Source of the DNA: a virus
Taxonomy: Duplodnaviria > Caudoviricetes
Length of the DNA stretch: 51,286 nt
Direction: 5' to 3' (one strand)
IMG/VR virus record: IMGVR_UViG_3300045919_000132
Span: 1-51,286 of that record
Positions 1,242 through 51,137 of this stretch are shown piece by piece. How positions within the stretch are numbered: position 1 is the first letter of the stretch; every line of letters starts with the position of its first letter. Under the pieces are notes generated by a model that was given only the letters and a program-made list of their open reading frames with translations, was not told the DNA's origin and made no database searches. A program made the translations under genes and the position numbers.

Positions 1242-2501
1242 CTATTGAAGAATATCCCTATAACGAGCAATTTCAGGTTCAATCAGAATTTCGGTACGCC
1301 CATGACGAAGACGCGACACGGTATCATCGTCGCCGGAGAGTTTGTTTTTGGAAATGTTAAAGAATCGTACATCCTCAAGAGCGGGGTCATGGGTTTTCCC
1401 AATACCCAGAATCCAATCGGCTTCAGCTTGCTTTGACGTTTTCGCATTAGCTACGTTGTCCATAGTCAGCCATTTTTGTCCTTCTCCTGTTCCATCTGCT
1501 TGGCAGACTCCAATAACTGGGCAATATGCTTTTGCAAGTTCTCTAGCCCAGATATAAATGGCCCCAAGTCGTAGGTCTTCCCGATCCGAATCAAATCCTT
1601 TGACTTTATCAATCTGGTCAAAAAGGATGAGAGAAGGTTTGTACTCTCGAATAATGCGTTCAGCTTCACCTTTAAAGAGCGCAGCACGATCAACGATGCG
1701 AATTTTCGACTTTGTTCTTTCGTCAAACGCCCTAGACCATTTGGGAATATCTCCACATAAGTCACTTTGGGTAATTCCCAGACTAGCTTGATAGACACGT
1801 AGGTTTACCTTTTCACCTTGTTCTTCATTGTTGAACCACAGAATAGGGCCGTCTTCGTCCCGCAACTGCGAAGCCATGTACGTGACTTCCGATGCAAGGA
1901 ACGTAGTCTTTCCTGTCTCTGGCCTAGCAAACACAAACCCAAAGTCACCTTTGCGAAGTGACCCTAGGGACCAGTTAAGGAAATTGATGCGCCACCGTAG
2001 GCCTCGCTTGGCGACCTGTTTATCGACCAACTCTGCCAAATCGTTTGTTACGAACAACTGCTCGGAGGTTTCGGTTTCAATCGGAGTGTCAATCTCCGAG
2101 AGCAACGCAGACAGGTCCGTTAGAGGTTTGGACCCGTTCTGCACATCAAAGGCCGTCAGGCTGATCTGAGATAAGACCTGCTGACGCTTGTACGCTTTGA
2201 GTAGCTCCTGCGCGATCTCTCGATCACTTGGGTTTGAGCGCAGTGAATTGAAGATGTCGTTAAAAACGACGTATTTTTTTTCTGTAAGACCAAGGTTCTT
2301 TGATTTGAAAAAGATTTCAAAGTCATCAACAGTGAAAGATTCTTTTTCAGGAAAAGCTTCGTAAAGAAGCTTAATGAATTCTACAAGAGTAAGTAGTTCT
2401 TTGTTGTTTATTTTATAATTAATAATATACTTATAATATTTATTATATATATCTTTATATAATAATATATTAAGTATACCACATAAAACGTTATCTGTCA
2501 A
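1242..2501 (-). CDS. DnaB-like (SF4) replicative helicase
   Basis: Walker A FARPETGKTT, NNEE, ILFDQID, VCQA, QAEADWILGIG, KNK; follows primase. The TTG start is uncertain. Confidence 0.9.
   Translation of the reverse strand: MTDNVLCGILNILLYKDIYNKYYKYIINYKINNKELLTLVEFIKLLYEAFPEKESFTVDDFEIFFKSKNLGLTEKKYVVFNDIFNSLRSNPSDREIAQELLKAYKRQQVLSQISLTAFDVQNGSKPLTDLSALLSEIDTPIETETSEQLFVTNDLAELVDKQVAKRGLRWRINFLNWSLGSLRKGDFGFVFARPETGKTTFLASEVTYMASQLRDEDGPILWFNNEEQGEKVNLRVYQASLGITQSDLCGDIPKWSRAFDERTKSKIRIVDRAALFKGEAERIIREYKPSLILFDQIDKVKGFDSDREDLRLGAIYIWARELAKAYCPVIGVCQADGTGEGQKWLTMDNVANAKTSKQAEADWILGIGKTHDPALEDVRFFNISKNKLSGDDDTVSRLRHGRTEILIEPEIARYRDILQ
2473..2501 (-). promoter_or_regulatory. sigma70-like promoter overlapping the helicase start
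   Basis: TTGACA-17nt-TATACT with extended -10 TG on the minus strand. Confidence 0.7.
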
Positions 2502-2510
2502 TACCTAACC

Positions 2511-3281
2511 TCAATTATTTTCGAGTAGCATCTGTTTAATCCTAGCTGGTGGCTCTTCTTTTGGATCACAGTTCGTGTGAACTACAAGAGGTTTGAAGCC
2601 CAATTCCTTAGCCTGTGTCGCAAGCTGAGTAGACTTCCGTTGCATGTCCGGATCAAGCCAAAACACTAACTTGTCGGTCAAAATTAACAATCGTCGCATA
2701 CGTTCAGCGGACAAATCGTTCCCGAACAACGGCATCGCAGCCATGTAACGACTGCATTTGATGGCTGAAACCATATCCTCAACCAACACTATACCATTTC
2801 TTTCGTCATTTGTCAAGCCCAAAATGTGAACAATTTCGGCCACTTTGCCATAAGTGACCCATTTTGGACGTCTGGTAACGGCTGCTCCAAGCCCTTTAAA
2901 GTTGCGTGCTTGATACGCAATCAGGTTTTCGTCGTCGTAGATAGGGAACAACAACTGCTCTTCTTTCTGCGACCACTTGAGGTTGTGCTCTTCCGCTTCG
3001 GCACTGGTAATGCCGTAACTTAGGAGCCATTGTTGAGCTTTAAAACCCAAAGTATAGACGGCATCCTCGGGCATTCTGATTTTGGAGGGGAGCATCTCCT
3101 GTTTGGATACCCCTAGGACCGCTTTAGCGGCCTCTAGGACGACTTCTGTGGTTCGGCTAGGGGGTTCCCCATACCCACAGCCAAAACACCAAGCATGGCC
3201 GTCTTTCCAGCGCCCTAGATTATCCCTGCTACCACAAGAAGGGCAGGCTTCGTGACATTCAAATTCTGAACTGCTAAACAT
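2511..3281 (-). CDS. T7-like DNA primase (Zn-binding domain + TOPRIM)
   Basis: CPSCGSRDN...CFGC zinc ribbon, LLFPIYD, YQARNF, VLVED, WLDPD, DPKE. Start moved to the ATG at 3281 (upstream AAGG). Confidence 0.9.
   Translation of the reverse strand: MFSSSEFECHEACPSCGSRDNLGRWKDGHAWCFGCGYGEPPSRTTEVVLEAAKAVLGVSKQEMLPSKIRMPEDAVYTLGFKAQQWLLSYGITSAEAEEHNLKWSQKEEQLLFPIYDDENLIAYQARNFKGLGAAVTRRPKWVTYGKVAEIVHILGLTNDERNGIVLVEDMVSAIKCSRYMAAMPLFGNDLSAERMRRLLILTDKLVFWLDPDMQRKSTQLATQAKELGFKPLVVHTNCDPKEEPPARIKQMLLENN
2788..2816 (-). promoter_or_regulatory. sigma70-like promoter internal to primase
   Basis: TTGACA-17nt-TATAGT with extended -10 TG. Confidence 0.65.
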
Positions 3282-3459
3282 TTTCCTTCTTTCCACCGCG
3301 TTGAAGACAAACAGAAACGGCTTTTGTAGCCACTGTTGAAAAATGCGTACACCAATTTGCAAACTCACTCTGTCGTAACGCTGGAGTGTGATGGTTTCTA
3401 GTGTTTCCAGACCAAAACACACAGTTTTTACAATGTTTGGGTTGTTTTTGTCGGGGCAT
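3274..3459 (-). CDS. Small Cys-rich hypothetical protein
   Basis: 61-aa ORF with CKNC plus further Cys; AAGG upstream; overlaps the primase start. Confidence 0.6.
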   Translation of the reverse strand: MPRQKQPKHCKNCVFWSGNTRNHHTPALRQSEFANWCTHFSTVATKAVSVCLQRGGKKENV

Positions 3460-3484
3460 TATCTTTTAACCTTGTTATAAGTTA
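3460..3484. repeat. Palindrome B (TAACTTWTAAC-N3-GTTAWAAGTTA-like)
   Basis: tatcttttaac-ctt-gttataagtta; related full site at 15221..15245. Confidence 0.6.
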
Positions 3485-3485
3485 A

Positions 3486-3504
3486 TTATAGATGGTATCT
3501 ATAA
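3486..3504. repeat. Palindrome A copy
   Basis: ttatagatggtatctataa. Confidence 0.9.
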
Positions 3505-3520
3505 GTATCGGGACCACATG

Positions 3521-3871
3521 TCATAATGCCATATGCTCCGAGATAGGTGCATCATAAATGATGTAAACCTGATTTTCTGTCAAATCCTCCTCAACCTTGG
3601 GAGGAACTACAGCAGGGGGTTTGGGTTCAACCTTGGGTTTCTGTGGACGCAACAACGCTGCCTGTTGTCGTTCTTGTTTACGTACCATACGGCGCTCCTG
3701 CCGAGTCTGTGCTTGCTTGACAACAACAAGACGCTTTGGCCCCTCATCTTTATCAAACCCAAAAGAACAAGCAGCTTTCTTGCAGTTAGCCAAAGCAAAA
3801 TTACGTATGTAAGTCTCAGTCCCGCCCGTAAACTTGAATTTGCATTGCTTGCAAGTAAGTTTAATAGTCAT
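3521..3871 (-). CDS. Hypothetical protein with N-terminal Cys motifs
   Basis: MTIKLTCKQC...CKKAAC; GGAGG RBS before the ATG at 3871. Confidence 0.65.
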   Translation of the reverse strand: MTIKLTCKQCKFKFTGGTETYIRNFALANCKKAACSFGFDKDEGPKRLVVVKQAQTRQERRMVRKQERQQAALLRPQKPKVEPKPPAVVPPKVEEDLTENQVYIIYDAPISEHMAL

Positions 3872-7702: not shown

Positions 7703-8300
7703 ATACTTTCCTTTGAAATACAGGGTGAAGGGGCGTCCTAACCAACGTATCCTCGCTGACCGTCGCGATGGGAGTTTGATGGTGGAACAAAAGAAAATCC
7801 TTAGCTTTGGTAATGCTAAGTCCCACCATAAACTCCGAAGAGATTCCCACACAGTAGCTAGTCCCGTCCTTGAGCATTTGAATAGCCGTTGCAAAGTCTG
7901 GGTATGTGGGCCGGAACATGCTGTCTGCCATCCACAATTCCATGGATGGCATCAGAATCAACCGATTGGTCGTGTAGAAATTCCCACGAGTGGAAGTGCT
8001 GGCACACAAGGCCCGTTTATTTTGACGAATCGGTCGCCGAAAAAAGGAATAGCCGATGTTGTTAAAGTTGAATACCCCAGTTGCAGGAAACTCAAAATTA
8101 ATCTCGCCCTCACCGCCATAACGGACAATCTGCGTTCCCGCCAGTCCCTGCAAAGCAAACGTAGGGGCCGCATTTTCTCCGGGATAGATTGCCGCCAACG
8201 AAACAGTTTCAAACTCCTTGTTCGAGGTGGGTTTGTAGCGAATGTAAGTGTGGAGATAGCGAAGAACAAGGTCTTCGTATAACCGGCCAAAATCAATCAT
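7686..8300 (-). CDS. Hypothetical protein of the ligase cluster
   Basis: 204-aa ORF overlapping both neighbours (ATGA coupling at its start). Confidence 0.7.
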   Translation of the reverse strand: MIDFGRLYEDLVLRYLHTYIRYKPTSNKEFETVSLAAIYPGENAAPTFALQGLAGTQIVRYGGEGEINFEFPATGVFNFNNIGYSFFRRPIRQNKRALCASTSTRGNFYTTNRLILMPSMELWMADSMFRPTYPDFATAIQMLKDGTSYCVGISSEFMVGLSITKAKDFLLFHHQTPIATVSEDTLVRTPLHPVFQRKVYDAPR

Positions 8301-11953: not shown

Positions 11954-12289
11954 TTACAGTTCTCCGTCGTTCTCGTAGTACATGTCATTCACAAATTCCC
12001 GCACCACTTGATGAGCCAGTTCATTCGGCTCTTTCTTGACGGTGTAGGGAATCTTCTTCATGCGGCCTTCCGCAATCTGGCGACCGGTTTTCTTGTTGAA
12101 TACATCATTGCCACCACAAGTAGCAACGCCGACCAGAATCGTCTCGTTATCGACCTCGGTGAACGCAGCAGTGTAGCCGTTGCGCATGTAGCCCTTACCG
12201 ACAGGCTCGAAATGCATGGTCTTGGTGGTGTTGTGGACGAACTTGGTAACAGCGGCTGCAACTGAGGCAACGGTAGTGCGAACTGGCAT
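11954..12289 (-). CDS. Phage hypothetical protein
   Basis: C..NDVFNKKTGRQIA motif typical of small phage proteins; AAGGA RBS. Confidence 0.8.
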   Translation of the reverse strand: MPVRTTVASVAAAVTKFVHNTTKTMHFEPVGKGYMRNGYTAAFTEVDNETILVGVATCGGNDVFNKKTGRQIAEGRMKKIPYTVKKEPNELAHQVVREFVNDMYYENDGEL

Positions 12290-12327
12290 TTTATATCCTT
12301 GTTAAAAGTTATAGACAGTATCTATAA
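12286..12327. repeat. 42-bp direct repeat copy 1 (palindrome A + half B + RBS + ATG)
   Basis: gcattttatatccttgttaaaagttatagacagtatctataa, identical to 13922..13963. Confidence 0.95.
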
Positions 12328-12673: not shown

Positions 12674-13012
12674 TCACTTGGTTTCTTTCGGTGCGATCAG
12701 TTTGTCGAGTTCCTTGTCAATCAACTGCTTGACTTTCTGCCCAGTGCTGCTGTTGATGGCATCCTTGGCTACGGATGCCCCGGCCATAAGGTACATGGTT
12801 TGTCTGTTTGGCAACATGACCGACGTGATACTGAGGGTGGTGAACGTGGTCAGTACGATTGTCAGCACTTTATAGCGATTGTCAGTTTCTTCGCTGAAAG
12901 CGTGGATACAAAAAATTCCGCCGACCAAGAAGGTTACCAACGTAAAAACCAACATCAAACAGGAAAGGTTTTCTGAAACATTTGCCAAATAAATAAAAGT
13001 TTCGATGCTCAT
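12674..13012 (-). CDS. Membrane protein (2 TM)
   Basis: Two hydrophobic stretches; P....MYLMAG motif. Confidence 0.75.
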   Translation of the reverse strand: MSIETFIYLANVSENLSCLMLVFTLVTFLVGGIFCIHAFSEETDNRYKVLTIVLTTFTTLSITSVMLPNRQTMYLMAGASVAKDAINSSTGQKVKQLIDKELDKLIAPKETK

Positions 13013-13302
13013 GCTTTGACCTCGATTTGAACTTCATCGGAACAGGGGGTCCACGTGGATGGGATGTGTAGGCCATTGACTACAGTGGGAATGATCGTTC
13101 CCCCTTGGCGGCGATAGAGTCGCACCGATACGGACACAGGCTCGGGTTGGATGCGATATTCAAACCGAGAAAAATCCCACGACGCATCTTCTGCTTGGAT
13201 GTTTTCCCACGGACAGGTTGGGCATACACGAAACTGGACAATTTGGCCTTCGGCAGCAGCCAAAAGAATGGCGCTTGCGGCGCGAATTTGATCGACGTTC
13301 AT
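13009..13302 (-). CDS. Phage hypothetical protein
   Basis: WDFSRFEYRIQP motif; ATGA coupling. Confidence 0.75.
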   Translation of the reverse strand: MNVDQIRAASAILLAAAEGQIVQFRVCPTCPWENIQAEDASWDFSRFEYRIQPEPVSVSVRLYRRQGGTIIPTVVNGLHIPSTWTPCSDEVQIEVKA

Positions 13303-13601
13303 TTTCCAGCAAGCTCCATCAGGTTGACTTCCTTGGACAGATCTGCGAGACGGCGTTGATTATCGACCCGCGTTGCCGTACCTTGAATCACCACACCTTC
13401 ACGACCCGTGGCAAAACGTTGACGCCGACGAGCGGCACGGTTGATGTGCGTGGAACGTGCCGGAGGCGGCAATTGCGGCGGCGAGTTGTAGGTTTTGACC
13501 GGCGGCGGAGCCGAGAACAGATCATGCAGCATGACCAAGATCAAACCGCCGATAAGCAGGATGGGCACAACATACGACAACATCGACCAGATGAAGTTCA
13601 T
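13299..13601 (-). CDS. Single-TM basic hypothetical protein
   Basis: N-terminal hydrophobic helix, Pro/Arg-rich tail, GGAG RBS. Confidence 0.7.
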   Translation of the reverse strand: MNFIWSMLSYVVPILLIGGLILVMLHDLFSAPPPVKTYNSPPQLPPPARSTHINRAARRRQRFATGREGVVIQGTATRVDNQRRLADLSKEVNLMELAGK

Positions 13602-13639
13602 TGCGGAATCTCCAAAGGAAAGTGAATCAAGGTAACGAA

Positions 13640-13676
13640 ACAAACAACAACAAGGGCCACCACTAGCAGGTAGCCC
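13640..13676 (-). terminator. Possible weak terminator
   Basis: GGGCTACC-N7-GGTGGCCC followed by TTGTTGTTGTTTGT. Confidence 0.4.
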
Positions 13677-13682
13677 AGTACT

Positions 13683-13925
13683 TCAAACAAATGCCACATC
13701 GTCAAACGAGGGGCGATCTTCGGGAAAGACTTCCTCGACAATAGGGAAACGAGCCAAACCTCGTGCAGTACGGAATTCCTTCAGGTGTTTGGCCGATTGA
13801 ATGGCGTCGTGGGCGGTGAAGGCCTCGACGGTTCCGATGTTTTCGAGGTTGGATTCGAATTCATCCGGCTTGTTGGGGCGTTGAACACGGGTCACACGCT
13901 GTTGCTGGAACAGAGAGAAGAGCAT
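13683..13925 (-). CDS. Hypothetical protein
   Basis: 80 aa; starts within repeat copy 2, with an AAGGA RBS. Confidence 0.75.
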   Translation of the reverse strand: MLFSLFQQQRVTRVQRPNKPDEFESNLENIGTVEAFTAHDAIQSAKHLKEFRTARGLARFPIVEEVFPEDRPSFDDVAFV

Positions 13926-13963
13926 TTTATATCCTTGTTAAAAGTTATAGACAGTATCTATAA
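13922..13963. repeat. 42-bp direct repeat copy 2
   Basis: Identical to 12286..12327; palindrome A at 13945..13963. Confidence 0.95.
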
Positions 13964-13965
13964 AT

Positions 13966-14048
13966 TGGTGCCCGATATGGGAGTCGAACCCATATGCTTG
14001 CGCGAGGGATTTTAAGTCCCTTGTGTCTACCATTTTCACCAATCGGGC
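13966..14048 (-). tRNA. tRNA-Leu (TAA)
   Basis: GCCCGAT acceptor stem, AGGGA-CTTAAAA-TCCCT anticodon arm, long variable arm, GGTTCGACTCC, encoded CCA; 83 nt. Confidence 0.95.
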
Positions 14049-14055
14049 TTGTTGA

Positions 14056-14283
14056 TTAGCCGATGTTGTCCGCAGGATCGGGAACGTCAGCCCACGAATC
14101 CACGACGTACACACTGTTTCGTGTCTCGACGCAATTTTCATCGTGGTTCACCACATCGCTCGTGATGATGCTGCCCCCAATCGTGCAGTTGGGATTGTCA
14201 ACATTGGTGCCCATCAGGATTTTCCGACTACCCCAAAAACTGTCGTAAAGCCTTGCATGGGTAATGTGATACGTAGGTTTCAT
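14056..14283 (-). CDS. Phage hypothetical protein
   Basis: IITSDVV...VETRNSVY motif; leader shares the TAACTTTTAACAAGGAT repeat. Confidence 0.8.
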   Translation of the reverse strand: MKPTYHITHARLYDSFWGSRKILMGTNVDNPNCTIGGSIITSDVVNHDENCVETRNSVYVVDSWADVPDPADNIG

Positions 14284-14382
14284 TTTTTATCCTTGTTAAA
14301 AGTTACAGTTTGACAGACCAAGAACCATTTGGCAGTGTAACAACCTGCCATTTGGTTTGATCAACCCAACCTGCACCCATGA

Positions 14383-14598
14383 TTACAGGTACAGCCCTTT
14401 GGCGGAGAGTTGCGCGGCGATGCTTGAGGCACCGTAGCGTTTCACCGTAATGGCGTGCTTATCGACCGTGGATTTGTGAGTCTCAGCGATGACGCGAGCA
14501 GTTTTGTCGCGTTGCTGTTTCAGGGTCCGCGCCAGATTGCGTGCGGCCTGTTCGTCCGAGATACGGACAGTGCTAACGTTCGTTTGATTCGTGTTCAT
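14383..14598 (-). CDS. Early hypothetical protein
   Basis: 71 aa, GGGGG RBS. Confidence 0.65.
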   Translation of the reverse strand: MNTNQTNVSTVRISDEQAARNLARTLKQQRDKTARVIAETHKSTVDKHAITVKRYGASSIAAQLSAKGLYL

Positions 14599-14644
14599 GG
14601 CATTACCCCCGTAATGTGATGGAAAAGGTTGAAGCAATTGTTGC

Positions 14645-14839
14645 TTACAGCGGATTGCGGCGCAGGGATTGCAGACCCGGCGTGTGGATCACTTCGTGAT
14701 CCGTGAACGTGTGACGCTCGAAACCACGCGGCACATCTTCCACAGGCTTGCAACGCGGCACATACTTGGCCGCATTGGAAGGAGTCATCGACGCCAGAAT
14801 GGCCGACAACTTACCGGATTTGCTGGTGAGTTTGCTCAT
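14645..14839 (-). CDS. Early hypothetical protein
   Basis: 64 aa, TAAGGAG RBS. Confidence 0.7.
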   Translation of the reverse strand: MSKLTSKSGKLSAILASMTPSNAAKYVPRCKPVEDVPRGFERHTFTDHEVIHTPGLQSLRRNPL

Positions 14840-15046
14840 TTGAATCTCCTTAATCACGGCAAGACGCCGCGATGTGGTGTGTATCGACCGTGACGCACAC
14901 CACACGCGAGGCACCCTACAGAATGATGTCAGGTTGAGGTGGGAAGGGCCACGACTCGGTGCGTTGAGTGCGCCAGTGATCTCGGGCCATGTTGCAGACA
15001 ATCCGCAACAAAAAAGCGTATTGAGTGGGAATCAGAGGATAAGGCA

Positions 15047-15187
15047 TCATCCCACCTGTATGTCGCAACGGATTGGAATCATCCTGCCATGCCGAGCCAT
15101 GCACTCGAAACGATGCACATCCTTAGCGTTGTACCAATGACGATTGGCTTGGAGTTCAATCCAACGCCGGGTAATGGATTGGAACAT
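15047..15187 (-). CDS. Small early protein (46 aa, not in the ORF track)
   Basis: AAGGA RBS directly after palindrome A; MFQSITRRWIELQANRHW... Confidence 0.5.
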   Translation of the reverse strand: MFQSITRRWIELQANRHWYNAKDVHRFECMARHGRMIPIRCDIQVG

Positions 15188-15200
15188 GGTGAATCCTTTC

Positions 15201-15245
15201 TTATAGATGGTGTCTATAATTAAGTTATAACCCTGTTAAAAGTTA
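15201..15245. repeat. Palindrome A (15201..15219) + palindrome B (15221..15245)
   Basis: ttatagatggtgtctataa-t-taagttataac-cct-gttaaaagtta. Confidence 0.85.
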
Positions 15246-15367
15246 TTGATTGAACAGCAGGACGTTGCGAGCAAACCACAACGGATATCCCTGCAAGCGC
15301 AGGTAAGTGGCAGCCACTTGCGTGTTGCGATGGATTGCCAACCAACGGGCATTGCGAACGTCGCGCA

Positions 15368-15619
15368 TCATGATTTGGAGCCTTTCGCGGCGAGCGCGTG
15401 AATCACGATGCCCACCAAACGGGTCAACAAACGGGACGACACAAACGACATGCCGTTGGTTTTGGCTGCACGGTAGATCAGCACCTTGATCAATTCCTCG
15501 GTGCTGAGTTCCATGCATTTCTGGATTTCCAGACGTATGACGGGATGCACCGGCTTGAGAGGGCCTCGAACGCTGCCCAAAGACGGGCCGGAAAACATGG
15601 TTTCGATGATTTTTTTCAT
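15368..15619 (-). CDS. Early hypothetical protein
   Basis: 83 aa from MKKIIE; GGAG upstream. Confidence 0.6.
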   Translation of the reverse strand: MKKIIETMFSGPSLGSVRGPLKPVHPVIRLEIQKCMELSTEELIKVLIYRAAKTNGMSFVSSRLLTRLVGIVIHALAAKGSKS

Positions 15620-15620
15620 G

Positions 15621-15908
15621 TCAGTGCATCTCCATGACGACGTTGTTGCAGGAGCAGGAGAACCACGTCCAGTCACCCTTACGGACGCAAATCCACTTGC
15701 GGAGTTTCTTGCTGAACACCTCGACGCGACGGTGTTCCAAGATGAATTCCTGCATCTTGGCGTCGCTGCGAAAGGTGCGCTTGTAGGTACGGTTCGGCGC
15801 AGCGTTGCTGCGGAACTCGACCACATGCGATTCGGCAGTGGCAGGTTGCACCACGGTATTGCCACGCTGATAGTTTGCGTGACGTTCGAGCCAACGTGAA
15901 AGTTGCAT
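15621..15908 (-). CDS. Early hypothetical protein
   Basis: 95 aa from MQLSRW; GGGGG RBS. Confidence 0.6.
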   Translation of the reverse strand: MQLSRWLERHANYQRGNTVVQPATAESHVVEFRSNAAPNRTYKRTFRSDAKMQEFILEHRRVEVFSKKLRKWICVRKGDWTWFSCSCNNVVMEMH

Positions 15909-15983
15909 TTTGTTACCCCCGGTACACGGCAAGACGCCGCCGTTAGCCAATTGTATATCGACCCAAAAGGCTAACAGAGTGCC

Positions 15984-16259
15984 CTACCAGTTGGTAGCGA
16001 GAATCCACGCAACAACCATTTGCAACGTGAGGAAAGAAGTTATGGATGAGTGATGACCATTACGAGCAATGGCCCATTCACCGTCGCATTCCCCGAGGTT
16101 GTGCCCGTACAACGTGAAAAAGTGTCGGTCGCACATGGGTTGAGCCATTGCTTCACGCATTTCAGCCATCAATTCGATTGCGTCGGCGGCGCGGAGCAGG
16201 CAGTAGGCACGGGCGGCATCGTGGTTGAACAGATATTTTTCAGCGGAAGGGAACATCAT
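15984..16259 (-). CDS. Early hypothetical protein
   Basis: First ORF after the structured RNA; GGAG RBS. Confidence 0.6.
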   Translation of the reverse strand: MMFPSAEKYLFNHDAARAYCLLRAADAIELMAEMREAMAQPMCDRHFFTLYGHNLGECDGEWAIARNGHHSSITSFLTLQMVVAWILATNW

Positions 16260-16269
16260 ATACTCCAAG

Positions 16270-16821
16270 TAATTAACAGGGTTGTTGTACCCGCAATAGG
16301 CAGATACAACATACTGCTAACTAACCTAAGTGTCACCAGAGATTTTTACGGCATACAGAACCTAATCTCTGCCAAAGGCGTTAGAAATACGTGAAGCGTT
16401 TCGTTTTATAGTTAACGTCCGACTCTGTTTAAGGCTTGGCAATCTTCACTGTGCTTAACGGGTTGAGCACTCCAAGCGGGCAGTCGTATAGGGTTCACCG
16501 GACGTGTGGCCCACCGAACTTATAGACAGTATCTATAAGTTATCGATTTGCCACCACTGTGTGTCGCATGGTTCAGTGGGTTCATTCACCCACCGTGCAG
16601 GGAGATAGTCGGGTTCCATAGGCGTTTCACAACGTACCCATGCGCTCCCTAATACCTATACACGTTTTAGCCATGCGCGGCGTACTTCACACAATGCATT
16701 ACTTAATCAAAGGGGAAAAGAACGAGAACTTATAGACAGTATCTATAAGTATGGGTTGGTTAAGATCGGCGATACCCGAACAACACTGGTTGGCGGGCAC
16801 TGCACTACTAGGACTTCCCCA
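16270..16821 (-). ncRNA. Putative large structured non-coding RNA / 5' leader of unknown family
   Basis: No credible ORF. Starts ~7 nt downstream of a sigma70 -10 box. Nested and abutting complementary segments, G-U pairs and a GNRA loop on the minus strand (see findings). Confidence 0.6.
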
Positions 16822-17134
16822 TGACATATTATACCACACCCCTAGAAATAAGCAAGCAAATCCCGGCACCCAATGCGATAGCTAGAAGAGCCTCTCCTAA
16901 TCCGGTGACACCCCACTCTCTAATTATAGATAGTGTCTATAATTGCCCGTAGTTTAAACACGGTGCCCCACCTACTGGAAACTGTTGTGCCACAACGATC
17001 TCCACACGCAACTGTATATCGACCTTATCTTATAGCCTAAGCCCGTATGATAACAACGGGTGCATTGCACACCCATAGGCGCAGACAGTGCTGTTTGATT
17101 GTGTGGGTACACATAGATATAGATGGTATCTATA
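16520..17134. repeat. Four regularly spaced palindrome A copies
   Basis: 16520..16538, 16730..16748, 16924..16942, 17118..17134. Confidence 0.9.
16828..16855 (-). promoter_or_regulatory. sigma70-like early promoter
   Basis: TTGCTT-16nt-TATAAT with extended -10 TG. Confidence 0.75.
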
Positions 17135-17238
17135 AGTATCCCGTGCATTTTTGTTTATCGTCCCCTGTTTATCGACCCATGCACCGGAACGGTGCACTCG
17201 CTCGCGCAGCGGTGCCGGTGGCGCACAAAATCAGGGCG

Positions 17239-17265
17239 AAAAAAAACCGCGCCTTTCGGCGCGGC
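17239..17265 (-). terminator. Rho-independent terminator
   Basis: CCGCGCC-GAAA-GGCGCGG-TTTTTTTT. Confidence 0.9.
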
Positions 17266-17289
17266 TCAAGTGCTACGGTGTGGGGCGCG

Positions 17290-18111
17290 TTACGCTTTCG
17301 CGGTACGCTTGCCTTTCGGCGCGTCAGACTTGATGCCTTTCCGCGCCTTGTGCATTGCGCCTTGTATCACAGTCACGGCTGCGACATGCGCCGCTTCTTT
17401 GCCTTGTTGTTCGCGCCACGCCTGCATTGCGGAGGCGCTTTCCTTCGCATCGACAAGGGTCAGGATCGCAAGCAAGTCAAGCAAACACTGGGGGGCCGCG
17501 CCTTGGATTTTCGGCGCAACCGCCTTGCTCTTGACGGTCTCAACCTTACCCGCTAGTGCCGTGTGCGCCGATGCGGCCCATGCTGCGAGGGTAGGCAATT
17601 TGCGCGGGGCCTGTTCGACGGCATTGGCACGAGCAAAGTACTTTCCCATTTCGTTAATGTAATGCGAAGCGGAGCCGCGCACCTTGAGCAGGTTTTCCCG
17701 AATTTCCGCATCGCGTGCCGTAGGAATTTCACCCTTGGCAAGACGCTTGACTTCTGGAAAGGCTTGCTTGTATGCCTTGAAGTACAAGGCATGTTCCAGA
17801 GTACCCTTTAGGGCCAGATAGTCCGGCGACCAGCCGTTTTCGTCTTTTGACTTGTCAAAGCATGACGGCCCGAACACGTTCGGCGCAACCATGCTCATTT
17901 CAAGCCACTGGCATTCCCGTTCGGCATCGTTACCGAAAAGCTCGAGGAATTTCGTTTCAAAGCCTTTAGCTGTTTTGATGCCCATGATCGCATCGCGTTC
18001 CTGCGCCTCCTTGAGCGCCAACAATTCGGCCTGCGATGCGGCCGGCAGGGTTTTGGAAACAGCCGCGACACTGGCCTTGACTACGGGTTTTGCTGCTTTG
18101 GCGTTAGCCAT
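17290..18111 (-). CDS. Ala/Lys-rich early protein, function unknown
   Basis: 273 aa, AAGG RBS, has its own terminator. Confidence 0.85.
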   Translation of the reverse strand: MANAKAAKPVVKASVAAVSKTLPAASQAELLALKEAQERDAIMGIKTAKGFETKFLELFGNDAERECQWLEMSMVAPNVFGPSCFDKSKDENGWSPDYLALKGTLEHALYFKAYKQAFPEVKRLAKGEIPTARDAEIRENLLKVRGSASHYINEMGKYFARANAVEQAPRKLPTLAAWAASAHTALAGKVETVKSKAVAPKIQGAAPQCLLDLLAILTLVDAKESASAMQAWREQQGKEAAHVAAVTVIQGAMHKARKGIKSDAPKGKRTAKA

Positions 18112-18192
18112 GGTGTTACCTTTCGCGCCGATAACGCGGCGCATCGTTGGGACTAAATGCCCCGATATGCCCCTAACGGCATATCGTGGAAT

Positions 18193-18390
18193 TCAGAAAG
18201 GCCAGTTTTTTTCCCGTTCGGCAAGTTTTGCCTTAACCCGTTCGGGGGCCTTGTAATCGTAGGCACTCCAATTCATACGGTGCGCCGCGACATACCGGTA
18301 ACGCACATGGCGCGAATTGAATCCCGCACATTGCACATGCGGGTAGTTCCGAAGCAGATACCAGACATAGAACCTAGTCATTTCATACAC
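18193..18390 (-). CDS. Small early protein
   Basis: Follows the promoter at 18414..18442; GGGAG RBS (true start probably a slightly downstream ATG). Confidence 0.65.
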   Translation of the reverse strand: MYEMTRFYVWYLLRNYPHVQCAGFNSRHVRYRYVAAHRMNWSAYDYKAPERVKAKLAEREKNWPF

Positions 18391-18413
18391 TCCCTGTTAA
18401 CCATCGAAACCCT

Positions 18414-18442
18414 AGTCTATACCCTTTCGAGGGAATGTGCAA
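18414..18442 (-). promoter_or_regulatory. sigma70-like early promoter
   Basis: TTGCAC-17nt-TAGACT. Confidence 0.6.
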
Positions 18443-18469
18443 GTACCCCAGAGGGTCCGATGCGATAAA

Positions 18470-18486
18470 TATAGAGGGTGTCTATA
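18470..18486. repeat. Palindrome A copy
   Basis: tatagagggtgtctata. Confidence 0.8.
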
Positions 18487-18753
18487 AGTACCGCATACAG
18501 TGGTTTTCACTGTATAAACCTCAAGTAAATTCGCAATGCTGTGGTTTTGTACAGTGCCCTAGGAATCGCGTAGGGGCGCACCACGCCACGCGAGGCGGTG
18601 CCGATGCCGTGCTATGTCCGACGCTCTGACTTCGCCCATGGCCCTTCTAGATGCCTTGCCGGGGAATGACATTGGCATAAGTTGCCTCTTTTTTGAGCGT
18701 TGTTCGCAATCCGAACATTCGGCTCTGCGCCCCGCGCACATGCCATTGTCATT

Positions 18754-18770
18754 TATAGACACCATCTATA
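18754..18770. repeat. Palindrome A copy, inverted orientation
   Basis: tatagacaccatctata = reverse complement of tatagatggtgtctata. Confidence 0.85.
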
Positions 18771-19138
18771 GTTGTAACGGTTTAAACGGTATAAACGGTT
18801 TAAATCCTTACTGGGTTCATGGGTATTGTCGGGGAGGGAGATCGATCGTATCCCATTGAATTGTATGCAATGCAATTGGACGCAATAGAACGGCCTACAA
18901 CGAACGAACGAGGCTTCAAGCTACCTACCCCTCAACCTGTACTACAAATCGATTCTAGATGCCTCCTGATCGATTCTAGAGGCATTATATGAAGGGGGTG
19001 GGGGGGAAAACATGCTGGCTTGATATTTGGGGAGAGAGGCAATGATATATTGCTATAATTTTATGGGGGGATGACGTTTTAATTATAAAGGCGAAGCTCG
19101 GCGATAAAGCCAGCCTCGCGTTGAAGTTCTATGGGGAG

Positions 19139-19237
19139 TATATATAATATAATATATAATAATAAATAAAAAGAATAATATAATATATAAATATAATAAT
19201 ATATAATATAAATACATATATATATTAATATATATTA
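19139..19237. other. Extreme AT tract (candidate unwinding element / origin) in the divergent intergenic region
   Basis: 99 nt with only 2 G/C. Confidence 0.5.
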
Positions 19238-19265
19238 GGGTAACATATAAATCGTCTTAAGTCAA
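19237..19265 (-). promoter_or_regulatory. Possible leftward sigma70 promoter
   Basis: TTGACT-17nt-TACCCT with extended TG. Confidence 0.45.
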
Positions 19266-19323
19266 TACAATTCGTCTTAAATTAAAAAAATAGGATCTTT
19301 TTTTATAATTATAAAAATATTTC

Positions 19324-19352
19324 TTGACTTTTAAGATATTTTAGTGTATAAT
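19324..19352 (+). promoter_or_regulatory. sigma70-like promoter of the rightward (late) arm
   Basis: TTGACT-17nt-TATAAT with an AT-rich UP region. Confidence 0.8.
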
Positions 19353-50417: not shown

Positions 50418-51137
50418 TTATTTAACTTCTACTAAATCTTTCAGATTCATTCCGGTAAAAATCTCGCAGCGAAGAGGCAGGTTGAAGTCTACTTTAAACC
50501 ATTCTTTGAACCTCGCAGGAGCGTCATCAAAACAGGATTGAACAATCTTTACAACATGATCAACCATATCACTAGGACAATCAATGTCAATTGAATCATG
50601 AACTGTTGATATGAGTCGGACCCCAGACACGAATAAGTATCGCAGACGAGCAAACAAAAGAGTCCTAACAATAGCCATGAGGTCATGTCCGAGTCCTTGT
50701 ACTGGATAATTCAAGATTTGGGTACGGGGCCATTTCATTTCACCCCGAGGGCTACTAACAGGAGCAAACTCATACTCCCGGCCAGTAGGCACAACCAAGC
50801 GCCCACGATTGCGGATGACGGTTTGAACCCAGTTTGTGTGCGTTTCTTGGAGAACCTTGTATTTTGCGTAAGCTTCATCGATTACTTTCTGCCAATATTT
50901 AGGGGACGTAGATACGTGTGTAAAGTCAGGATCATAAGCATATGCGTAGGCAGTGCCGCCGTAAATGAGGCGAAAAAGAAAAAACTTAGCGATTCGTCTC
51001 TCAGGCAAACTAAATCGAGAGCGGTTGATTTCATGCATATCAACATTGTCCATTATCTCCTGCATACCTACGGGGTCTTGTGAGAGGTAACATGCTCCTA
51101 TCCACTCAAGTTGTCTGGCGTCTACGTGAACGATCAA
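50418..51137 (-). CDS. polA: Family A DNA polymerase, C-terminal catalytic part
   Basis: Motif A DARQLE, motif B RRIAKFFLFRLIYGG, NYPVQG, motif C VHDSI; GAGGA RBS with TTG start. Confidence 0.93.
   Translation of the reverse strand: MIVHVDARQLEWIGACYLSQDPVGMQEIMDNVDMHEINRSRFSLPERRIAKFFLFRLIYGGTAYAYAYDPDFTHVSTSPKYWQKVIDEAYAKYKVLQETHTNWVQTVIRNRGRLVVPTGREYEFAPVSSPRGEMKWPRTQILNYPVQGLGHDLMAIVRTLLFARLRYLFVSGVRLISTVHDSIDIDCPSDMVDHVVKIVQSCFDDAPARFKEWFKVDFNLPLRCEIFTGMNLKDLVEVK

Follow-up and report, generated by a model that had tools for sequence, protein, structure and literature searches.

A putative hairpin-rich early leader and a phage-wide oriented palindrome in a metagenomic wetland phage

Described leaders and dyad repeats compared with the locus

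Untranslated early leaders that carry RNase III hairpins are known from coliphages, upstream of gene 0.3 in T7 and in the N leader of lambda. Here we describe a stretch of about 1 kb without open reading frames (ORFs), positions 16260-17243 on the minus strand of IMGVR_UViG_3300045919_000132, a complete IMG/VR virus record of 51,286 bp from a lytic-type wetland phage ("the window" denotes this whole record). An initial annotation, made from the sequence without database searches, had proposed a promoter-driven, multi-domain structured RNA of about 550 nt at 16270-16821; the ORF-free stretch is larger than that segment. We tentatively read the stretch as a cis-acting, hairpin-rich 5' leader and early-operon regulatory region, tied to an oriented palindrome that recurs across the phage genome, a possibility to which we give rather less than an even chance. 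What we observe directly is its anatomy, its non-coding status, its folding statistics and the orientation and spread of its motifs; the anatomy is real, its working as an RNA machine unproven.

As in the T7 and lambda leaders, several hundred untranslated nucleotides would separate a predicted host-type promoter, where an early operon starts, from the first gene, with long imperfect hairpins just before the ribosome-binding site of that gene. Imperfect duplexes of at least about 20 bp upstream of a gene, the hallmark of RNase III leaders, are predicted at 16265-16329 and 16506-16554. The locus has no sequence or Rfam relation to those leaders, and its palindrome copies distributed over the phage and a predicted branched 142-nt domain (D2, below) have no counterpart there.

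Dyad repeats in many copies offer a second comparison. Excerpts of one report on Cluster O mycobacteriophages describe a 17-bp repeat, TGTTCGG-N3-CCGAACA, in more than 30 copies with a centre biased with transcription (PMC4351075), and excerpts of another describe start-associated sequences with inverted repeats in Cluster K (SAS/ESAS) and mention the stoperators of L5 (PMC3203893). The palindrome of the present phage, TTATAGA-N5-TCTATAA, resembles the Cluster O and K repeats in its many copies, its invariant inverted arms and variable centre, its position mostly between genes or near their boundaries, its association with gene starts and the orientation bias of its centre; the function of those repeats is unknown or regulatory. 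It differs from them in sequence, in number of sites (12 here) and in host, and further in that four copies are evenly stacked in one ORF-free kilobase, that hairpins are extended on the transcribed strand, and that three of 21 loci from relatives carry non-identical palindromes of their own. The resemblance is a likeness of kind, not homology.

Large phage RNAs are a third comparison, among them GOLLD, which adjoins tRNA genes. The stretch shares with ROOL (RF03087) and GOLLD a length of about 550-600 nt, a phage setting, a non-coding character and an unknown function; unlike them it had no homologues in the collections searched, folds beyond chance in parts only, and has its nearest tRNA gene (13966-14048) 2.2 kb away. 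The 574-position ROOL model gave no match at E <= 1 in the record and was also silent in 14 of 14 control genomes. All-family Rfam scans returned nothing for GOLLD, with the proviso that no GOLLD-directed search was made and that inclusion of its model in those scans is unconfirmed. With Rfam 15 covariance models, only two tRNAs passed the gathering score in the whole window, and at E <= 10 the region 16200-17300 yielded only two chance matches, both on a terminator hairpin (17163-17271), in keeping with the earlier view that the RNA belongs to no recognised family.

Anatomy, coding status and folding of the ORF-free kilobase

The putative leader lies on the same strand as the surrounding genes. 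Read along that strand, the stretch presents a terminator, three oriented copies of a 12-mer, four palindromes, an extended -10 promoter and a leader of about 560 nt, as follows.

17244-17267, minus strand: intrinsic terminator, a 10-bp stem with seven G-C pairs, then a T run
17152-17177, minus strand: tandem pair of the 12-mer GGTCGATAWACA, 14 nt apart, inside a GTGCAT/ATGCAC stem
17117-17135, minus strand: palindrome copy TTATAGA-N5-TCTATAT, one mismatch, hairpin extended by its flanks (p = 0.017)
17013-17024, minus strand: third 12-mer copy, GGTCGATATACA
16924-16942, minus strand: palindrome copy, 69 nt upstream of the -35 hexamer
16828-16855, minus strand: candidate sigma-70 promoter, with TTGCTT (16855-16850), a 16-nt spacer and the extended -10 TGGTATAAT (16836-16828)
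16260-16821, minus strand: putative untranslated leader, about 560 nt between the predicted start and the ATG that opens ORF 15984-16259
16712-16821, minus strand: D1, two hairpins (one being the palindrome 16730-16748) and a weak closing helix GGGGAA/UUCCCC, z -3.3
16555-16696, minus strand: D2, a predicted 142-nt branched fold, minimum free energy (MFE) -55.2 kcal/mol, z -3.95
16506-16554, minus strand: D3, in which flanking pairs lengthen the palindrome 16520-16538 to an imperfect hairpin (about 20 bp, -23.8 kcal/mol)
16415-16505, minus strand: D4 as claimed in the initial annotation, folding at chance level, z +0.17
16265-16329, minus strand: 3' hairpin, imperfect, 27 bp, its 3' arm pairing the first two G of GGAG (16266-16263)
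15984-16259, minus strand: first ORF after the leader, 91 amino acids (aa), orphan, gene-like codon usage, GGAG ribosome-binding site

The stretch is non-coding, as had been proposed: no credible ORF exists in it under table 11 or with TAG read as Q or TGA as W. By a codon-usage log-odds score trained on 18 long genes, the seven short ORFs wholly within 16270-17240 score -0.05 to -0.34 per codon, which is how spurious frames score (-0.20 +/- 0.15, n = 162; chunks of true frames, +0.32 +/- 0.15, n = 158), and the flanking ORFs reach 0.19 and 0.26. Recoding was considered and rejected: neither reassignment gives a long frame, and the two tRNA genes of the window, Leu(taa) and Thr(tgt), are not suppressors. 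At the upstream border, the terminator closes a gene of 284 aa (17290-18144). No intrinsic terminator was found by a terminator scan inside the leader or before ORF 15984-16259, so that the stretch is better described as a 5' leader than as a free RNA gene. No relative of the 91-aa protein was found; a single relative of the 284-aa protein, 44% identical, came from a contig of 2.2 kb, and an Atlas search placed the 284-aa protein only in unnamed viral clusters and returned nothing for the 90-aa protein.

The claim that the RNA is promoter-driven stands in part. The extended -10 TGGTATAAT is near-consensus and makes a promoter plausible, with a predicted start of transcription near 16822-16820; TTGCTT matches the -35 consensus TTGACA at three of six positions, which is why the candidate is missing from the promoter-scan list.

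Folded against shuffled sequences, the minus strand of 16270-16821 (552 nt) reaches z -3.68, which none of 100 shuffles equals, and the plus strand reaches z -2.40, so that a folding energy beyond shuffles holds for the stretch as a whole. Domain values come from 200-shuffle folds; 100-shuffle folds gave similar values and those for the plus strand. D2 (one of 200 shuffles as good) falls to z -2.4 on the plus strand; D3 reaches z -7.4, reflecting the palindrome itself; the 3' hairpin reaches z -4.26 (one of 200 as good), and the segment that contains most of it, 16270-16414, z -3.2 against -0.5 on the plus strand. In a scan with 100-nt windows, minus and plus values were -4.9 and +0.6 at 16225-16324, -5.7 and -4.3 at 16500-16599, and -3.8 and -1.9 at 16575-16674; the scan element 16700-16824 has z -3.3. 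The half upstream of the promoter, 16822-17240, has z -0.9 in a 100-shuffle fold. Palindromes add folding energy on both strands. Under this energy model D2, D3 and the 3' hairpin appear as discrete elements with a minus-strand bias, and the predicted 3' hairpin half covers the ribosome-binding site of ORF 15984-16259.

The initial annotation had drawn these domains in detail. All complementary strings that it quoted are present on the minus strand where it had placed them, and no linker separates D2 from D3 (16555/16554) or D3 from D4 (16506/16505). D2 is a well-defined fold in which MFE and centroid structures coincide; the MFE structure accounts for 0.146 of the ensemble. Of 150 shuffles, 1.3% attain that frequency and 2.7% match D2 in ensemble diversity (10.6). 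The nest of inner helices proposed for D2 comes to -44.4 kcal/mol as drawn, 10.8 worse than the MFE, which pairs the inner part otherwise. D4 is not supported as a domain: 113 of 200 shuffles fold as well, and its hairpin GTGCTCAAC/GTTAAGCAC would need a 2-nt loop, which the energy model forbids. What remains of the 550-nt multi-domain RNA is therefore D2, D3 and the 3' hairpin, which fold beyond shuffles, with D4 and 16325-16500 at chance.

These values bear directly on whether processing of the leader releases a free-standing large structured RNA that belongs to no known family and serves as a ribozyme, a scaffold, a decoy or a polymerase-binding element, which we consider improbable. The z-score of the whole stretch, the branched D2 and the lack of an Rfam family would suit it, as would the rarity of an ORF-free kilobase: the early region of the Alcaligenes phage introduced below is densely coded in its annotation, and an apparent gap of 1.2 kb in another relative (L113) turned out to hold an ORF of 497 aa. 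Large ornate RNAs are also known from phages, according to the excerpted text of 10.1101/2024.12.08.627333. Against it stand the parts just named that fold no better than shuffles, the missing 3' terminator, the silence of the ROOL model and the fact that similar z-scores occur inside genes. Nothing points to a ribozyme, an antiterminator that binds RNA polymerase or a decoy in particular, the three functions suggested initially.

Searches for relatives weigh on the same side. Judged by its terminase, the phage is closest among named ones to Alcaligenes phage vB_Af_QDWS535 (63% identity over 76% of the query; a literature search found no paper on it), followed by the uncultured record MW202796 at 50%; IMG/VR contains 73 related loci at 53-86% identity. 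Searches with blastn found no homologue of the stretch in 50,697 phage records and 72,556 plasmids and no match at E <= 1 in 75 loci of relatives, and a DNA search in related phage records gave 0 of 10. In 907,724 bases from relatives, a covariance model built on D2 matched only D2 itself. Viral, metagenome and genome collections scanned by way of two flanking proteins held no homologue of the RNA, and the two-palindrome pattern retrieved no relative from metagenome and genome contigs. Four DNA runs, from wetland and freshwater metagenomes, contain the stretch or near variants of it, with 0.91, 0.66 and 0.30 of the sampled words present in runs X2, X3 and X4 and small, uninformative shares in X5-X7; among the runs listed as containing it there is no RNA run.

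The palindrome and the oriented 12-mer

The palindrome TTATAGA-N5-TCTATAA (19 bp) occurs at 12 sites in the window with at most two mismatches, against 0.00 expected. All 12 lie in the arms of the genome that are transcribed on the minus strand; the 24-kb late block of the plus strand (19.3-43 kb, terminase and structural genes) is free of them. The 7-bp half-sites are invariant, with no compensatory change, and the variable 5-bp centre has the form N-A-C-N-N along the minus strand everywhere except at 18753, where it is reversed (11 of 12 sites). Five palindromes lie directly upstream of a ribosome-binding site and ATG, and two follow tRNA genes; where small ORFs follow elsewhere in the genome, the distance to the ribosome-binding site is 10-25 nt. 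In IMG/VR, 93 stretches hold the single palindrome, and the best 80 of these 93 hold one match each.

The strongest argument that the palindromes of the ORF-free DNA act, at least partly, as RNA comes from their flanks, as modelled by folding. When the 19-mer was kept and 15 nt on each side were shuffled (300 shuffles), the minus-strand hairpin proved to be extended by its natural flanks at 16520 (0 of 300), 18469 (p = 0.003), 17117 (p = 0.017) and 16730 (p = 0.023). These four sites all lie in ORF-free DNA, and the other eight, including those that adjoin ribosome-binding sites, are not extended (p = 0.09-0.99). With its flanks, palindrome 16520 folds at -21.6 kcal/mol on the minus strand and -15.0 on the plus strand, and 18469 is likewise much weaker on the plus strand. 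The proposed link between the RNA and the palindrome system thus gains from the longer hairpins of the transcribed strand. Palindrome 18469 itself sits in a three-hairpin fold (18425-18524, minus strand; z -4.64, 0 of 200 shuffles as good) some 35 nt upstream of a 65-aa ORF (18193-18390), and it lies within a second ORF-free stretch of about 0.9 kb, 18400-19340, which contains two palindromes.

On the reading that we favour, 16260-17243 would be an early regulatory region of about 1 kb, with 16270-16821 as its transcribed half, in which the terminator of the first early unit is followed by three 12-mers and two palindromes and then by the promoter, from which a leader of about 560 nt would run without a terminator into the 91-aa ORF and act in cis. 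The leader would hold two palindromes within longer, minus-strand-specific hairpins, D2, and the 27-bp hairpin that partly occludes the ribosome-binding site. Its long hairpins would be sites of processing, stability or translation control, like RNase III sites, and a phage factor would bind the palindrome hairpins, or their DNA form, and so time early and middle expression. Promoter activity, transcription, processing and the binding factor are the parts of this scheme that we infer. A more specific version, rather unlikely in our judgement, would make the palindrome an RNA operator with an invariant stem and an oriented YACYN loop, read by a phage protein at 12 early and middle sites; the ORF-free kilobase would be the hub of the regulon, where two operators, D2 and the ribosome-binding-site hairpin set an early-to-middle switch or titrate the factor, and relatives would use palindromes of their own.

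The same palindromes can be read at the level of DNA, as an operator array in which a dimeric phage protein binds the duplex at four sites that bracket the promoter and represses or times it by looping or road-blocking, the RNA folds being by-products. We regard this as unlikely, though more likely than the other rival readings. Half-sites that are invariant around a variable centre would suit such a protein. The four palindromes of the ORF-free kilobase are evenly spaced, at 210, 194 and 193 bp, with unrelated DNA between them, and the promoter lies between those at 16924 and 16730. Multi-copy dyad repeats have their parallel in other phages, as the excerpted account of Cluster O illustrates (PMC4351075). 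Relatives also speak for it: of 21 loci screened, 18 have no repeated palindrome and three carry different ones at like positions, as co-evolving pairs of protein and operator would give. Most of these precede early gene starts by a few to about 45 nt. L117 has six copies of GTTAGAA-N2-TTCTAAC (2836, 4509, 5642, 6124, 7866 and 15763), two of which overlap promoter-like TTGACA/TTAACA-N17-GAAAAT, L129 has five of GTTACAT-N2-ATGTAAC (1150, 4382, 6772, 6934 and 7950), and the Alcaligenes phage has three of TCCTAATATTAGGA; the palindromes of L006 are at 8009, 10231 and 11630. Against an operator array stand a centre oriented with transcription at 11 of 12 sites and flank extension that is biased to one strand through G-U pairs; the most strand-specific folds, D2 and the 3' hairpin, are free of palindromes, and no DNA-binding protein was recognised with Pfam and PHROGs.

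Several observations weigh against the reading as a leader with RNA-level control. It rests on one orphan sequence that is without homologues in all collections searched, and Pfam and PHROGs recognise no candidate binding protein, RNase or regulator. Invariant arms without compensation fit a sequence-specific protein on DNA as well as RNA, and it is not obvious what the even spacing of 193-210 bp would mean for an RNA. Within the leader, some 175 nt (16325-16500) carry no structure signal (z -1.0 to +1.6 in 100-nt windows). Domain borders were picked by eye, which favours low energies, and comparable z-scores occur elsewhere in the genome, even inside genes: among random 142-nt tiles, two of 197 (about 1%) reach z <= -3.9 and seven reach z <= -3.0, and 16501-16650 on the minus strand ranks third among 4092 windows of 150 nt in a scan regressed on composition, with neighbours in the ranking that include windows inside tail and other protein-coding genes. 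The folding values are in the tail of the genome's distribution, yet not outside its range. The -35 hexamer is weak, and TGNTATAAT is found three times in the window against 1.3 expected, so that the promoter is plausible and not proven. If leader and palindrome hairpins are functional, they would form a compact phage-specific regulatory code of palindrome, oriented 12-mer and long leader. Relatives of vB_Af_QDWS535 each appear to carry a palindrome of their own, through which the timing of early and middle expression could be dissected in phages in which no regulator or RNA polymerase of their own can be recognised. Known from a single metagenomic genome, the element is an orphan, and its value is that of a lead, not a discovery.

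Spacing and gene association could alternatively be the relics of small early genes that have decayed, leaving palindromes and chance hairpins with no function of their own, which we hold to be distinctly improbable. The position of palindromes just before the ribosome-binding sites of small ORFs elsewhere is what such genes would have had, intervals of 193-210 bp would suit ORFs of 45-55 codons, and the surrounding early block is made up of orphans and deviant in G+C. Yet a tblastn search with 11,491 ORF translations from relatives reached a best E of 4e-5 per query, which is chance level for so many queries, and no frame retains gene-like codon usage; strand-biased hairpins and a near-consensus extended -10 are unexpected in decaying DNA, and phage genomes are under packaging-size pressure. 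We also rejected a degenerate tandem repeat of about 195 bp, the units having nothing but the palindrome in common. CRISPR arrays and RNA anti-CRISPRs have repeats of 24-40 nt with spacers of about 25-70 nt, or match a host CRISPR repeat; here the spacing is 193-210 bp and the DNA between repeats unrelated. As intrinsic terminators the palindromes were rejected: their stems are AT-rich, the T run is mostly missing and none was called by the terminator scan. On inspection no consistent -35 was seen at a proper distance for them to be sigma-70 promoters.

The second repeated motif, the 12-mer GGTCGATAWACA, would be expected 0.34 times with at most one mismatch and has 11 copies. Every one is in minus-strand orientation, and the late block of the plus strand is free of them. 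Their positions are 2017, 5296, 13357, 14456, 14878, 15952, 17013, 17152, 17166, 44399 and 48093; five of the 11 are inside genes, three (17166, 17152 and 17013) lie between the terminator and the promoter, and several are located within the loop of a hairpin or close to it. The motif may serve as a promoter specific to this phage or as a signal in RNA.

Tandem and dispersed copies are also what iterons would look like, and the stretch could be a replication origin with the palindromes as auxiliary elements, activated by transcription from the adjacent promoter. On the plus strand the 12-mer, TGTWTATCGACC, contains TTATCGAC, which matches seven of the eight letters of what we take to be the DnaA-box consensus; the stretch is ORF-free and adjoins a promoter, and the phage itself encodes a helicase, a primase and a polymerase. 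Even so, we consider an origin here highly improbable. The 12-mers are spread over both minus-strand arms, nearly half of them inside genes, and all point one way; the most AT-rich repeat block, which is more origin-like, lies elsewhere (19139-19237); and the turning points of the cumulative GC skew, near 12 kb and 43 kb, are away from the stretch.

Small repeats accompany both motifs. An identical 16-mer (minus strand GCGGCGTCTTGCCGTG, a small hairpin) at 14855-14870 and 15925-15940 follows a 12-mer site in each case and precedes the ribosome-binding sites of two small ORFs. An exact 42-nt duplicate, 12286-12327 and 13922-13963, comprises a palindrome, the ribosome-binding region CTTTTAACAAGGA and ATG, and a third copy of the region at 14280-14321 is without the palindrome. 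Antitermination sites of the lambda nut and HK022 put kinds lie just downstream of an early promoter, consist of boxA with a boxB hairpin or of the twin put hairpins, and go with a matching factor. CTTTTAACAA, which resembles what we take to be the boxA consensus, occurs next to palindromes 12309 and 13945 as well as at 14280 and 15225; it overlaps their ribosome-binding sites and is absent from the leader.

Genome setting

The minus strand encodes a DnaB-like helicase, a primase and a DNA polymerase, as recognised with Pfam and PHROGs, and a cluster of amidoligase, glutamine-amidotransferase and COOH-NH2-ligase genes; between 43 and 51 kb it carries holin, RusA-like, exonuclease and ribonucleotide-reductase genes. 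Among the genome's proteins, the same two databases recognised neither an integrase nor a repressor nor an RNA polymerase. The early block at 13000-19000 has a G+C content of 0.51-0.55, against 0.38-0.49 in most of the adjoining DNA, and GC skew is positive at 12-16 kb despite minus-strand genes. Because its proteins are orphans and its composition deviates, the block may be an acquired module.

The region 19121-19352 is a divergent control region and a possible origin. It holds three sigma-70-like promoters on the plus strand, the best of them TTGACT-17-TATAAT at 19324-19352, which adjoin the extremely AT-rich repeat block mentioned above.

Two further observations concern individual genes. 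In L101, the closest relative by terminase (86% identity), the match at 1631-3847 spans 2217 bases for a query of 510 aa, which suggests that its terminase gene carries an insertion such as an intein, intron or endonuclease. Matches to DNA polymerase fall at both ends of the record described here, at 50418-51137 and 57-1241; the gene may be split by the record ends, or by an insert between its parts.

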